From Mobula hypostoma (taxonomy: Eukaryota), in NCBI RefSeq assembly GCF_963921235.1, contig NC_086097.1:81222001-81286000 (forward strand): DNA of 64,000 bases, in the 5' to 3' direction. Each line of letters opens with the position of its first letter. Position 1 is the first letter of the stretch. Positions 43,571 to 48,696 of the stretch are shown piece after piece. The translations under genes were made by a program, and so were the position numbers. Under the pieces are notes generated by a model. That model saw only the letters and a list, made by a program, of their open reading frames with translations. It made no database searches and was not told the origin of the DNA.

Positions 43571-44558
43571 AAGATTTATCTTTAAAGATTATAAAAAGTC
43601 AGACATAATCAGTAAGCATTTAAATTTCTCAATATTTACTATTAAAGATTAAAAAAACAATTTTTGCATCGTTGTATGTCCCAGACTCTGCCTGCTTTTA
43701 ACATGATGCTTTCTGATTGCACAAACGCTTTCTCCCAGCAACTTTCAATAACTTTAAATTGGTGTGCAGAACCAGTTTCTGTAACCCTTGGGCAGCAATG
43801 CAACCAAAACTCCTGAGCCACCAGCACTACCCCAATATCCCAAGGTCAGTTAGATCCCAAGAAGCTATCACTTCATTTATTGAGCAAATATTGTGAAACA
43901 TTGCTAACAAATTAGGGATTAACATAAGAAAATTGAGTTCAGAAACAAAATCAGCATTGTACATCTTTTAAATATGCAGTGTTGAACAGAAACTTATTTC
44001 ATCTTTGTTCTCATTTTTAATTTGAAATTAAATAAATTTGATTGTATCTTTTGTACAATTCTGATTGAAGACTGGTACTTGATTGGCACAGAAGTCATAT
44101 TTTCATGCTGTTCGCAGCAAAGTTCACACCTTTCTTTCCATTCTTTCTGCCCCCTCCCCACCCACCATCTTCCTAACACTTCAGTAAACTGTTTATGAGA
44201 ACCCTGAAAAGTATGCCAGAAATAGCTAGGGCTATAAATATTTTTCTTCTTTGGAAATCCCTCAATACCAAGGATGACTTGATTCTTTTCTAGTTCTGTG
44301 GGCTACAAGGTCAGACGAAGGTGGTGCCAGGTGACATGGGTAGGTAAGTAGTCTGTGAGGTGTGCCCTCCGGCAATAACTTACATAGGGTTTCTGATGCA
44401 TTGCCTCCCAATGAATTGACTCATTCTGAATGCCCCTTTTCACCCTGAAGTATCTATGAGCCAGGGATTCCCAGGGATCGAAAGGGATGTTGCATTTTGC
44501 TTGCAAGGAAGCTTTAACATAGAACATAGAATAGTACAGCTCAGTACTATTGTGCCCT

Positions 44559-47520
44559 TCAGCCCACAATGTTGTGCTGACCCTCAAACCTGCCTCCCAT
44601 ATAAGCCCCCACCTTAAATTCCTCCATATACCTGTGTAGTAGTCTCTTAAACTTCACTAATGTATCTGCCTCCACCACTGACTCAGGCAGTGCATTCCAC
44701 TCACCAACCACTCTCTGAGTAAAAAACCTTCCTCTAATATCCCCCTTGAACTTCCCACCCCTTACCTTAAAGCCATGTCCTCTTGTATTGAGCAGTGGTG
44801 CCCTGGGGAAGAGGCGCTGGCTATCCACTCTATCTATTCCTCTTAATATCTTGTACACGTCTATCATGTCTCCTCTCGTCCTCCTTCTCTCCAAAGAGTA
44901 AAGCCCTAGCTCCCTTAATCTCTGATCATAATGCATACTCTCTAAACCAGGAAGCATCCTGGTAAATCTCCTCTGTACCCTTTCCAATGCTTCCACATCC
45001 TTCCTATAGTGAGGTGACCAGATCTGGACACAGTACTCCAAGTGTGGCCTAACCAGAGTTTTATAGAGCTGCATCATTACATCGTGACTCTTAAACTCTA
45101 TCCCTCGACTTATGAAAGCTAACACCCCATAAGCTTTCTTAACTACCCTATCCACTTGTGAGGCAACTTTCAGGGATCTGTGGATATGTACCCCGAGGTC
45201 CCTCTGCTCCTCCACTCTACCAAGTATCCTGCCATTTACTTTGTACTCTGCCTTGGAGTTTGTCCTTCCAAAGTGTACCACCTCACACTTCTCCAGGTTG
45301 AACTCCATCTGCCACTTCTCAGCCCACTCCTGCATCCTATAAATGTCTCTCTGCAATCTTTGACAATCCTCTACACTATCTACTACACCACCAACCTTTG
45401 TGTCATCTGCAAACTTGCCAACCCACCCTTCTACCCCCACATCCAGGTCGTTAATAAAAATCATGAAAAGTAGAGGTCCCAGAACAGATCCTTGTGGGAC
45501 ACCACTAGTCACAAATCTCCAATCTGAATGTACTCCCTCCACCATCACCCTCTGCCTTCTGCAGGCAAGCCAATTCTGAATCCACCTGGCCAAACTTCCC
45601 TGGATCCCATGCCTTCTAACTTTCTGAATAAGCCTACCGTGTGGAACCTTGTCAAATGCCTTACTAAAATAAAATATAGATCACATCCACTGCACTAACC
45701 TCATCTATACGCCTGGTCACCTCCTCAAAGAACTCTATCAGGCTTGTTAGACATGATCTGCCCTTCACAAAGCCATGCTGACTGTCCCTGATCAGACCAT
45801 GATTCTCTAAATGCCTATAGATCCTATCTCTAAGAATCTTTTCCAACAGCTTTCCCACCACAGACGTAAGGCTCACTGGTCTATAGTTACCCGGACTATC
45901 CCTACCAACTTCTTTGAACAAGGGTACAACATTTCCCTCCCTCCAATCCTCCGGTACCATTCCTGTGGACAACGAGGACATAAAGATCCTAGCCAGAGGC
46001 TCAGCAATCTCTTCTCTCGCCTCGTGGAGCAGCCTGGGGAATATTCCGTCAGGCCCCGGGGACTTATCTATCCTAATGTATTTTAACAACGCCAACGCCT
46101 CCTCTCCCTTAATATCAACATGCTCCAGAACATCAACCTCACTCATATCGTCCTCACCATCATCAAGTTCCCTCTCATTGGTGAATACCAAAGAGAAGTA
46201 TTCTTTGAGGACCTCGGTCACTTCCACAGCCTCCAGGCACATCTTCCCACCTTTATCTCTAATCGGTCCTACCTTCACTCCTGTCATCCTTTTTTTCTTC
46301 ACATAATTGAAGAATGCCTTGGGGTTTTCCTTTACCCTACTCGTCAAGGCCTTCTCATGCCCCCTTCTTGCTCTTCTCAGCACCTTCTTAAACTCCTTTC
46401 TTGCTTCCCTATATTACTCAAGAGACCCATCTGATCCTTGCTTCCTAAACCTCATGTACGCTGCCTTCTTCCACCTGACTAGATTTTCCACCTCACTTGT
46501 CACCCATGGTTCCTTCACCCTACCATTCTTTATCTTCCTCACCGGGACAAATTTATCCCTAACATCCCGCAAGAGATCTCTAAACATCTACCACATGTCC
46601 ATAGTACATTTCCCTGCAAAAACATCATCCCAATTCACACCCGCAAGTTCTAGCCTGATAGCCTCATAATTTGCCTTACCCCAATTAAAAATTTTCCTGT
46701 CCTCTCTGATTCAATCCTTTTCCATGATAATGCTAAAGGCCAGGGAGCGGTGGTCGCTGTCCCCCAGATGCTCACCCACTGAGAGATCTGTGACCTGACC
46801 TGGTTCATTACCTAGTATTAGATCTAGTATGGCATTCCCCCTAGTCGGCCTGTCCACATACCGTGACAGGAATCCGTCCAGGACACATTTAACAAACTCT
46901 GCCCCATCTAAACCCTTGAAATTAATCAGGTGCCAATCAATATTAGGGAAGTTAAAGTCACCCATGAAAACAACCCTGTTATTTTTGCACCTTTCCAAAA
47001 TCTGCCTCCCAATCTGCTCCTCTGTATCTCTGCTGCTACCAGGGGGCCTATAGAATACCCCCAATAGAGTAACTGCTCCCTTCCTGTGCCTGACTTCCAC
47101 CCATATTGACTCAAAGGAGGATCCTGCTACATTACCCACCCTTTCTGTAGCTATAATAGTATCCCTGACCAGTAATGCCACCCCTCCTCCCCTTTTTCTG
47201 CCCTCTCTATCCCTTTTAAAGCACTGAAATCCAGGAATATTGAGAATCCATTCCTGCTCTGGTGCCAGCCAAGTCTCTGTAATGGCCACTACATCATAAT
47301 TCCATGTATGTATCCAAGCTCTAAGTTCATCACCTTTGTTCCTGATGCTTCCTGCATTGAGGTACACACATTTCAGCCCTTCTACCTTACTGTCTTTACA
47401 CTGTTTATTCTGCTTCTCTTTCCTCAAAGCCTCTCTGTATGTTAGATCTGGCTTTACTCCATGCACTTCTTTCACTGCTCTATCGCTCTGGGTCCCATCC
47501 CCCTCGCAAATTAGTTTAAA
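44559..47520 (-). pseudogene. CR1 ORF2 (APE endonuclease plus reverse transcriptase), 2 in-frame stops and 1 frameshift
   Basis: YLNAGSI, ITETW, YRPP, GDFNFP, SDH; KSPGPDG, YRPVSL, GVPQGSVLGP, FADDTK; stops at 46711-46713 and 46414-46416, frameshift at ~45670. Confidence 0.95.
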
Positions 47521-47523
47521 CCC
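47511..47523 (-). promoter_or_regulatory. Candidate -1 ribosomal frameshift slippery site G_GGU_UUA_AAC_UAA at the CR1 ORF1/ORF2 junction
   Basis: ORF1 ends GAG GGT TTA AAC TAA; the -1 frame GGG TTT AAA CTA ATT TGC... runs open into ORF2, which has no ATG before mid-APE. Confidence 0.65.
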
Positions 47524-48452
47524 TCCTGAACCATGCCAGCAAACCTACCTGCAAGGATATTGCTCCCCCTTGAGTTCAGGTGCAACCCATCCAATCTGTA
47601 CAGGTCCCACCTTCCCCAGAAAAGATCCCAATGATTTAAAAATCTAAAACCCTGCTCCCTGCACCAACTCCTCAGCCACGCATTCAACTGCCATCTCCTC
47701 CAATTCTTACCATCACTGTCACGTAGCACTGGCAGCAATCCTGAGAACGTCACCCTTGCGGTCCTGTTCTTCAGCCTTTTGCCTAATTCCCGAAACTCAC
47801 ACTTCAGGACCTCATCCCTCTTCTTGCCTATGTCATTGGTCCCAACATGTATCACGACTTCTGGTTGCTTTCCCTCTCGTACCAGGATGTCGTGCACCCA
47901 GTCAGAGATATCCCGGACCCTGGCACCTGGCAGGCAACAAACCATGCGGGTGTCCTTCTCACGTCCACAAAATCTCCTGTCTGCTCCCCTGACTATAGAG
48001 TCTCCAATGACGACGGCTCTCCTCTTCGCCGTCCCACCCTTCTGCACCACAGGGTCAGAATCAGTGCCGGAGGCCCTGCCACAGTGGCTCACACCTGGTA
48101 GGTCGTCCCTGCCAACAGTATCCAGGACGGTAAACTTATTATTCAGGGTAATGGCTACAGGGGTGCTCTGCACTACCTGTCTGCTCACCTTCGCTTCCCC
48201 CCCTCTGACTGTCACCCAACAACCTGCTTCCGACAGCCTAGGTGTGACTACCTCCCTGTAGCTCTCATCTATGAGTGCCTCATTCTCCCTTATGAGTCGA
48301 AGGTCATCCAGCTGCTGCTCCAGATTCCTTACACGGTCTTCCAGGTCACCCAGCCGTATGCACTTCTGGCGGATGTTACTCTGCGGGAGAGAGGAGTTCC
48401 CCCAAGACTGCCACATCTCACATGAGAAGCACATCACCATCTCAGGAGACAT
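47511..48452 (-). CDS. CR1 ORF1 protein (313 aa from likely ATG): zinc-finger-like, coiled coil, SGNH/GDSL esterase
   Basis: Open frame; CFSC..., LEDRVRNLEQQLDDLRLIRE, IGDSIVR, CLPGA, HVGTND, DGLHLN. Confidence 0.9.
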   Translation of the reverse strand: MSPEMVMCFSCEMWQSWGNSSLPQSNIRQKCIRLGDLEDRVRNLEQQLDDLRLIRENEALIDESYREVVTPRLSEAGCWVTVRGGEAKVSRQVVQSTPVAITLNNKFTVLDTVGRDDLPGVSHCGRASGTDSDPVVQKGGTAKRRAVVIGDSIVRGADRRFCGREKDTRMVCCLPGARVRDISDWVHDILVREGKQPEVVIHVGTNDIGKKRDEVLKCEFRELGKRLKNRTARVTFSGLLPVLRDSDGKNWRRWQLNAWLRSWCREQGFRFLNHWDLFWGRWDLYRLDGLHLNSRGSNILAGRFAGMVQEGLN

Positions 48453-48696
48453 TGTAAAAACTAACTGCGAGCTGGCTTGTCCTCCGCCTCTTCTCTTCGA
48501 AGCCTCTCGAGTCAAAGCCTCAAAGCTCCACTCCTTCACTGGCCCCCTCACGCACTGGCCGCTTTCCACTGAATATCTTGAATTATTTTCTGTGCCTGCT
48601 TGATAATCCACTTATGTGACTGAGTTCTGAACAGAGCATCTGTTTCCGGTGTCGGTTTTCAGGCATGTGGCTGCCCAGTACAGCAATATAAGTGAC

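Follow-up and report, generated by a model that had tools for sequence, protein, structure and literature searches.

We analysed a 64,000-nt stretch of Mobula hypostoma DNA, hereafter the window (assembly GCF_963921235.1, contig NC_086097.1, positions 81,222,001 to 81,286,000 of the forward strand), which carries on its minus strand a copy of a long interspersed nuclear element (LINE) of the CR1 group with two open reading frames (ORFs). The last two sense codons of ORF1 and the base before them form a slippery heptamer, U_UUA_AAC, that abuts the stop codon, and ORF2, with an apurinic/apyrimidinic endonuclease (APE) domain near its beginning, lies open in the -1 frame. Comparison with further copies, with other lineages and with ORF1 proteins (ORF1p) across vertebrates makes it likely that in vertebrate CR1 elements with an esterase-type ORF1, the window family included, ORF2 lacks a start of its own and is reached by programmed -1 frameshifting.

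In the mechanism that we propose, the ribosome would decode the final ORF1 codons, UUA AAC, directly ahead of the stop, and the two tRNAs would slip back one base onto UUU AAA. The next codon read would be CUA, followed by a variable linker of 30-80 codons, the endonuclease and the reverse transcriptase (RT). The majority of ribosomes would terminate and produce ORF1p, and a minority would go on to produce an ORF1p-ORF2p fusion, in the manner of Gag and Gag-Pol. The signal probably also includes the abutting stop codon and a run of G that begins 9-12 nt after the heptamer. The sequences described below show the heptamer, its phase, the adjacent stop, the -1 phase of ORF2, the open linker and the conservation of all these; slippage and how efficient it would be, any part played by the G-run and the fusion protein itself are inferred.

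The end of ORF1 in the window element

On the minus strand, the end of ORF1 reads ...CAG GAG GGT TTA AAC TAA TTTGCGAGGGGGATGGGACCC, with TTTAAAC at 47520-47514 and the stop codon at 47513-47511; the letters up to TAA and the position of TTTAAAC agree with a preliminary description of this DNA. The ORF1 frame (47511..48611, stop to stop) terminates in ...MVQEGLN. The preliminary description had pointed to two overlapping phased heptamers, G_GGU_UUA and U_UUA_AAC. Both are in the correct phase, but the first is incidental and is not conserved outside two lineages. The frame from 47544 to 46711, in phase -1 relative to ORF1, is open and reads ...GGFKLICEGDGTQ... into the endonuclease domain (Exo_endo_phos), as had been claimed. 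The first Met of this frame after the heptamer is codon 185, in the FMGDF motif that had been named as its earliest position. The G-rich tract said to follow a short spacer is also in place, with GGGGG at 47503-47499, 10 nt after the heptamer.

To estimate how often such a site arises by chance, codons were drawn randomly from the window ORF1. The two final sense codons, together with the base ahead of them, made up a canonical heptamer in 0.23% of draws, and any of the seven in-phase positions within nine codons did so in 1.6%. The junction is spanned by contigs assembled from an RNA library and from three public runs of uncertain type, and these display no variant or indel at 47511-47522 at a threshold of 10%, with variable sites in the neighbourhood. 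Such contigs can hide rare forms, which makes this weak evidence; DNA carry-over is possible, so they are no measure of transcription level.

Three more canonical heptamers occur elsewhere in the window ORF1 on the minus strand: GGGAAAG (47868-47874), GGGTTTT (47646-47652) and TTTAAAT (47634-47640). All three are in phase 0, with none in the other two phases, and the -1 frame is closed at these places. Including the junction pair, the window ORF1 holds five canonical heptamers in 312 positions, against about 0.7 expected.

The junction in other copies and lineages of the Mobula hypostoma genome

A search of the 3.48 Gb genome with a 301-nt sequence covering the junction gave at least 4286 first-look candidates, of which the best 40 scored were 97-100% identical. 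GGTTTAAAC followed by TAA was kept in 30/30 near-identical copies (97-100% identity); because young copies are alike by descent, this identifies the junction as a trait of the family and is not proof of selection. The -1 frame was closed upstream of the heptamer in every one of these copies, by a TAG five codons away in 25; in the other five, the window copy included, the closure lies eight codons away. Any change of frame would therefore have to occur within about 25-35 nt. Downstream of the heptamer, the first Met of the -1 frame was codon 185 in 15 of the 30 copies, a premature stop came earlier in nine, and in six the first Met lay elsewhere (codons 7-228), presumably through private mutations. 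Three copies were open in the -1 frame over all 540 codons covered.

Designating the window family lineage A, we identified four further lineages, B-E, in the same genome by searching it with ORF1 proteins of other species and reading short stretches of the matches. Their junctions read ACT TTA AAC TAG (B), GGT TTA AAC TAA (C), GCT TTA AAC TAG (D) and GCT TTA AAC TAA (E), and in each of them the APE domain is in the -1 frame. The ORF1 of lineage B is about 62% identical to that of the window, and that of lineage E, an old lineage, about 42%. Among 30 copies of lineage E, 15 carried the heptamer and stop, one the heptamer with an altered stop, and 14 other single mutations or deletions, differences that are as expected if the copies decayed neutrally from a heptamer-bearing ancestor. 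For lineages B and C, the open part of the -1 frame starts just two codons upstream of the heptamer; across the eight lineages for which we have DNA (A-E and the three metagenome lineages F-H, introduced below), the -1 frame is closed shortly upstream in six.

Lineage B (e.g., locus L061) was also distinguished by the state of its copies. All 127 scored matches to one ORF1 protein were 98-100% identical and free of internal stops, which suggests that amplification of this lineage in the genome is very recent or ongoing.

C-termini of ORF1 proteins across vertebrates

Protein searches with ORF1 and a cluster look-up gathered 264 proteins. We regarded a C-terminus as complete when the last esterase block lay 18-50 residues from the end, and 184 proteins qualified, from cartilaginous fishes, coelacanth, ray-finned fishes, frogs, turtles and squamates. 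LN was the end of 129 of these, QGN of 12, and 43 ended otherwise; the C-terminus is thus compatible with one of two slippery heptamers, UUUAAAC and GGGAAAC, in 141/184 homologues. Named sources of the LN type include rays, sharks, coelacanth, a mormyrid, an eel, Xenopus, a poison frog, turtles, lizards and snakes.

The residue preceding the terminal Leu provided a further indication at the protein level. This residue is variable, with 14 identities among the 129 LN-type proteins, and yet those amino acids whose codons never end in U (K, E, Q, M and W) occurred there only twice, both times as Glu, compared with 48/129 and 49/129 at positions -4 and -5. When only unique 8-residue tails were counted, the figures were 2/87 before the Leu versus 107/435 (Fisher p 1.6e-7, a value that overstates independence because the sequences are related). 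Limitation of a variable residue to NNU-compatible codons is predicted by a putative U_UUA_AAC constraint and is not predicted by a constraint on the protein.

Some database entries among these homologues were irregular. The matches P0001, P0023, P0025, P0051, P0056 and P0106 include public gene models in which CR1 ORF1 pieces are fused to host genes (annotated, for instance, as ribosomal protein S24 isoform, hydroxyacid oxidase 2 isoform or transmembrane protein 204 isoform), and an ORF1 on a 4-kb contig that is filed as a Pseudomonas aeruginosa hydrolase. Such entries are likely annotation artefacts and contamination.

A second heptamer with the same pattern

For proteins ending in QGN, we predicted beforehand that the end would be encoded CAG GGA AAC, which contains the heptamer G_GGA_AAC. 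A search for a QGN-type family in the Mobula hypostoma genome matched only LN-type lineages, at no more than 47% identity. As the family is absent from the genome of the window, we scanned metagenome contigs with a nine-protein alignment (A2) and obtained 80 loci, with QGN DNA in two metagenome loci only. Both agreed with the prediction: L068 (lineage G) reads CAG GGA AAC followed by TAG, with APE in the -1 frame and that frame open for about 500 codons to the end of the contig, and L069 (lineage H) reads CAG GGA AAC followed by TAA, again with APE in -1. One LN-type locus, L067 (lineage F), reads CAT TTA AAC TAG and likewise has APE in -1.

In 8/8 DNA lineages, then, an X_XXY_YYZ heptamer in the phase of the 0 frame, an abutting UAA or UAG and an ORF2 in -1 occur together. 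Leu is encoded by TTA in all six LN lineages and Asn by AAC in all eight, although the ORF1 proteins of the lineages that keep the heptamer have diverged to about 30-40% identity. The Gag-Pol-like fusion of ORF1, APE and RT by way of U_UUA_AAC that the preliminary description had suggested thereby gains comparative support. Between the LN and QGN types, UUU is exchanged for GGG, a switch of three bases and one amino acid that keeps the slippery pattern. This switch between UUUAAAC and GGGAAAC is the strongest single argument that tandem tRNA slippage may take place: two heptamers that have only X_XXY_YYZ in common argue for -1 frameshifting and a predicted ORF1-ORF2 fusion.

The same alignment was used to scan bacterial and archaeal genome contigs, where all nine loci found were bacterial SGNH hydrolases or unrelated elements. 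L126, L148 and L153, which lie on short contigs placed in bacterial genome bins, carry an SGNH-like ORF (end ...VVKRLRKA) immediately after an ORF with a GDWRSD.YKKYL motif; these are elements of another kind than the LINEs considered in this work.

The linker and the start codons of ORF2

The linker between slip site and APE domain comprises about 30-80 codons, varies by lineage in both length and sequence, and is open in all lineages where it is intact. There is no AUG near the ORF1 stop in the -1 frame in any of the eight DNA lineages, and none overlaps the stop. An in-frame ATG ahead of the APE domain, which in the family consensus would have counted against the preliminary description, is absent in five of the seven lineages with an intact linker (A, B, D, F and H) but not in C and G. 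Since Met is missing from those five and present only in C, G and some copies of E, an AUG of its own is not a conserved property of ORF2, whereas the heptamer is conserved.

A run of G downstream of the heptamer

All eight lineages carry a run of four to seven G that starts 9-12 nt after the heptamer, where shuffled sequences gave a per-lineage expectation of 0.75-6.4%. In seven of the eight, G flanks the central GGG on both sides, as the third base of the preceding codon (for E, L, Q, R or K) and as the first base of the following one (for D, G or V). As G is kept while the encoded amino acids change, this pattern points to constraint on the run as RNA rather than as protein. The region that follows the heptamer is purine-rich, with C at 2-16%.

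Loci with UGA at the end of ORF1

Thirty-two of the metagenome loci (among L074-L145) had a different junction. The last codon of ORF1 was AAC in 24 of them, AAT in seven and AGC in one, and it was followed by TGA and then by CTA, CTT or CCA. APE was matched in 22 of the loci; it shared the frame of ORF1 in 17, lay in -1 in three and in +1 in two, and the loci with APE in -1 or +1 are decayed copies. Frame 0 was open for up to 491 codons past the TGA. The third codon after the TGA was ACG in 15, ATG in 13 and ACT or AAG in four, so that there is no conserved AUG for a restart. Downstream there was again a G-rich stretch. UGA followed by CUA is a leaky stop context, and the junction of this group looks like one of the stop-codon readthrough type. 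A readthrough-type junction in these loci suggests, in turn, that LINEs with an esterase ORF1 in general couple ORF2 to ORF1 by recoding.

Alternative explanations

Several observations weigh against -1 frameshifting as the route to ORF2. The eight DNA lineages are not fully independent, as A, C and D resemble one another near the junction. Other ends were found in 43/184 homologues; several of these can be recognised as LN or GN ends altered by mutation or extension, and some of the 43 are probably lineages with other junctions. In-frame Met codons precede the APE domain in lineage C (codons 38 and 41), in lineage G (codons 63 and 66) and in some copies of lineage E (at about codon 16). The stop codon is strictly adjacent to the heptamer, an arrangement that standard -1 frameshifting does not need and that also fits a termination-coupled event, and the 9-12 nt that separate the G-run from the heptamer are at the long end of, or past, the usual spacer lengths. 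The sequence UGGGA also lies 55-125 nt upstream of the stop in all eight DNA lineages (at about 47607-47630 in the window), a point to which we return below.

Folding of the downstream region belongs with these points. No pseudoknot of the kind that the preliminary description had proposed to look for emerged: when the 110 nt past the heptamer were folded for the eight lineages, minimum free energies ranged from -2.9 to -21.6 kcal/mol, with no helix, hairpin or pseudoknot shared among them, and a three-tier G-quadruplex, judged by eye, was not consistently possible, with only two downstream G-tracts in the window copy. The stable structure 5-9 nt downstream that is usual in canonical frameshift signals was predicted for none of the eight lineages. 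For the window copy, folding of the first 114 nt past the heptamer gave a z-score of -2.45, due largely to a hairpin further downstream that is missing in other lineages.

On a wider reading, the recoding signal is centred on the stop of ORF1 itself. LINEs with an esterase ORF1 would then share two interchangeable forms of it: in vertebrate-type elements, a -1 slip on the last two codons by ribosomes that pause at UAA or UAG, and in the metagenome group with ORF2 in frame 0, readthrough at an in-frame UGA-CUA. Common to both forms are a G-run about 10-14 nt after the stop and the lack of a hairpin. We regard this wider reading as possible but doubtful. If true, the G-run would be a new kind of stimulator, acting as a small G-quadruplex, through contact with rRNA or through a bound protein; that protein could possibly be ORF1p itself, feeding back on the ratio of ORF2p to ORF1p, and the ORF1p-ORF2p fusion would be a physical basis of cis-preference in the CR1 group.

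To our knowledge, the only well-studied cases of LINE ORF2 translation, L1 and SART1, use reinitiation, and termination followed by reinitiation is a serious rival here even though we consider it unlikely. All ribosomes would terminate at the ORF1 stop, and a fraction of 40S subunits (or 80S ribosomes) would remain, perhaps tethered by pairing of UGGGA with 18S rRNA or by a downstream G-rich element, and begin again close by in the -1 frame at a codon other than AUG, as L1 ORF2 is proposed to do and as SART1 and caliciviruses have been shown to do; ORF1p and ORF2p would be separate proteins. The constant contact between stop codon and conserved motif fits this explanation, as does an ORF2 frame that stays open as far as the stop in every lineage. 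UGGGA, which is the core of calicivirus reinitiation (TURBS, termination upstream ribosome-binding site) motif 1 (PMC5972666; this and the other papers cited by PMC number are used as far as their available text goes), occurs upstream as noted and again 16 nt downstream in lineages A-D. There are also precedents, in the downstream structure of SART1 and in the AUG-independent ORF2 of L1 (PMC5972666, PMC3708506). The upstream UGGGA, however, derives from conserved Trp-Asp/Glu codons of the esterase and is lost together with them: only 70/129 LN-type proteins have W[DE] within their last 60 residues, leaving 59 in which UGGGA is expected to be absent, whereas LN is present in all 129. No AUG overlaps the stop. 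Reinitiation moreover leaves unexplained the X_XXY_YYZ pattern, the concerted change of UUU to GGG and the match at the wobble base, which is U before UUA in 6/6 lineages and G before GGA in 2/2, and is compatible at the protein level in 127/129 LN-type and 12/12 QGN-type proteins.

A second alternative is that ORF1p needs its terminal Leu-Asn or Gly-Asn, for example to end the last esterase helix, so that the heptamer is a by-product and ORF2 is translated in some other way, for instance by internal entry or through leaky or non-AUG initiation. It draws on the terminal Asn, which is an invariant column in an alignment of 23 ORF1 proteins (A1) and is also kept in the UGA group (AAC in 24 and AAT in seven of 32), where ORF2 is in the same frame and the heptamer is missing. 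A need of the protein does not explain why TTA is chosen among six Leu codons in 6/6 lineages, why the wobble base of the variable preceding residue is restricted, or why ORF2 is in -1 phase in 8/8 lineages with the -1 frame closed just upstream in 6/8; and the replacement of L by G is non-conservative, yet the slippery pattern was kept. We judge this explanation improbable. Least probable by far is that the frames are joined in the nucleic acid, by transcriptional slippage, editing or a small splice that yields a continuous ORF in the mRNA, as we found no point in its support, the site has no long homopolymer, the contigs of the four runs (10% threshold, under which rare forms may be hidden) list indels only at 47594-47596 and none at the junction, and joints near the site have a depth of about 10-30 versus tens of thousands.

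Parts and decay of the window element

The features of the window element are collected in Table 1. Pfam places the domains of its minus-strand ORFs in the order PF03372, PF14529, PF00078, with APE N-terminal and RT after it, and alignment A1 shows conserved Cys pairs and esterase blocks in the ORF1 proteins, in keeping with an SGNH/GDSL domain that follows a Cys-rich, coiled-coil N-terminus. In CR1 elements the 3' end typically consists of short tandem repeats instead of poly(A), as in the window element. An esterase ORF1 is described as a trait of CR1/L2 elements in the available text of two surveys (PMC4120745, PMC13343379). Given its Pfam domains and repeat-bearing 3' end, the element is an esterase-ORF1, APE-RT LINE of the CR1 group; its placement in CR1 in the strict sense, as opposed to L2, is suggested by the 3' tail and the type of ORF1. 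The window copy itself, a member of a young and abundant family, is dead and incapable of making a working ORF2, because this ORF contains three in-frame stops and one frameshift.

Table 1. Parts of the CR1-group element in the window (coordinates are those of the window)
Feature	Coordinates	Strand	Basis
CR1-group LINE copy (ORF1, ORF2, 3' tail)	44516..48611	-	ORF list, Pfam, 3' end; 5' end unmapped
ORF1, 313 codons + TAA, MSPEMVMCF... to ...MVQEGLN	47511..48452	-	ATG start, TAA end, length divisible by 3
SGNH/GDSL esterase domain of ORF1p	47562..48011	-	Pfam PF13472, E 1e-13, residues 201-350 of the 366-aa open frame
Slippery heptamer U_UUA_AAC	47514..47520	-	Last two ORF1 sense codons and third base of the codon before
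ORF1 stop TAA, abutting the heptamer	47511..47513	-	Sequence; TAA/TAG at the same place in 8/8 lineages
G-rich tract GGGGGATGGGA	47493..47503	-	G5 run 47503-47499, starting 10 nt after the heptamer
ORF2 linker, -1 frame, slip site to endonuclease, open, without Met codon	47359..47520	-	Frame reading
APE domain of ORF2	46750..47358	-	Pfam PF03372, E 2.4e-20, residues 63-265 of frame 46711..47544
Three premature in-frame ORF2 stops	46414..46713	-	First bases 46713, 46590, 46416
ORF2-breaking frameshift between two RT-bearing frames	45664..45680	-	Frames of ORFs 45664..46413 and 44559..45680 differ where the two overlap
Reverse-transcriptase domain, split over two frames	45216..45894	-	Pfam PF00078, E 3.5e-7 and 1.4e-21
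3' terminal short tandem repeat TTCTATG TTCTATG TT	44516..44531	-	Sequence

Comparison with known systems

How ORF2 is translated from a bicistronic LINE RNA is an old question, for which a phased heptamer at the ORF1 stop offers a concrete candidate mechanism. A 2013 review of non-LTR (non-long terminal repeat) protein biogenesis calls ORF2 initiation an open question, and the word frameshift is absent from its available text (PMC3894237); another paper states that the mechanism "is, however, not clear" (PMC3708506). Our search of the full-text literature found no paper tying CR1 to frameshifting, with the 2003 paper of Kapitonov and Jurka and the original chicken, turtle and fugu papers outside its coverage, where an earlier remark is possible. 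The words frameshift and slippery do not occur in the available text of a 2026 survey of the CR1 group (PMC13343379) or of a 2014 survey of ORF1 (PMC4120745), and a 2016 review of frameshifting, as far as its text was available, mentions non-LTR elements only for HeT-A, TART and L1 (PMC5009743).

If true, the predicted ORF1p-ORF2p fusion would alter views of ribonucleoprotein assembly, cis-preference and the dosage of ORF2p, and the junction would be a natural -1 signal that apparently works without a classical pseudoknot. It would also supply an annotation rule by which ORF2 could be called in CR1 elements that lack a start codon. Frameshifting in the -1 direction is not new for non-LTR elements as a class, given that TRE5-A and TRE3-A of Dictyostelium require it for ORF2 (PMC5911963). 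Those elements belong to a different clade and host, and the available text of that paper reports no signal of heptamer, stop and G-run. For the CR1 clade, -1 frameshifting in the style of gag-pol is supported, though not demonstrated, by our comparisons, and its unusual feature would be a heptamer that abuts the stop, combined with a G-run and no predicted pseudoknot.

Like the CR1 element, L1 and SART1 have a bicistronic RNA, and synthesis of their ORF2 needs ORF1 translation to reach the junction; in SART1, a downstream element matters and the ORFs are coupled through UAAUG (PMC5972666, PMC3708506). They differ in that a spacer lies between their ORFs or the stop overlaps an AUG start, and in that separate proteins are made, whereas the CR1 junction has a phased heptamer and mostly no AUG. 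Among host genes of retroelement origin, Ma3/PNMA genes use -1 frameshifting at a classical heptamer (available text of PMC5009743). The PEG10 and PNMA genes, unlike CR1, derive from LTR elements and have H-type pseudoknots. PEG10 uses G_GGA_AAC, the same heptamer as the QGN-type loci L068 and L069.

The coronavirus ORF1a/1b junction uses exactly this heptamer, U_UUA_AAC, to shift by -1 into the ORF of the polymerase. Coronavirus frameshifting depends on a conserved multi-stem pseudoknot a few nucleotides downstream; the CR1 element, in contrast, has no predicted pseudoknot and its stop abuts the heptamer. The resemblance between the two heptamers is convergent and does not reflect homology. 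The gag-pol junctions of retroviruses and LTR elements resemble the arrangement proposed for CR1, with X_XXY_YYZ at the end of an upstream structural ORF, a pol-like ORF in -1 without a start, and a minority fusion product that sets the ratio of structural protein to enzyme. The CR1 element departs from them as a non-LTR element with target-primed reverse transcription and no encoded protease, with an ORF1p that is an esterase/coiled-coil protein and not a capsid, and with a conserved G-run in place of a predicted pseudoknot or hairpin. The closest layout is that of Rous sarcoma virus, in which the gag stop comes directly after the heptamer.

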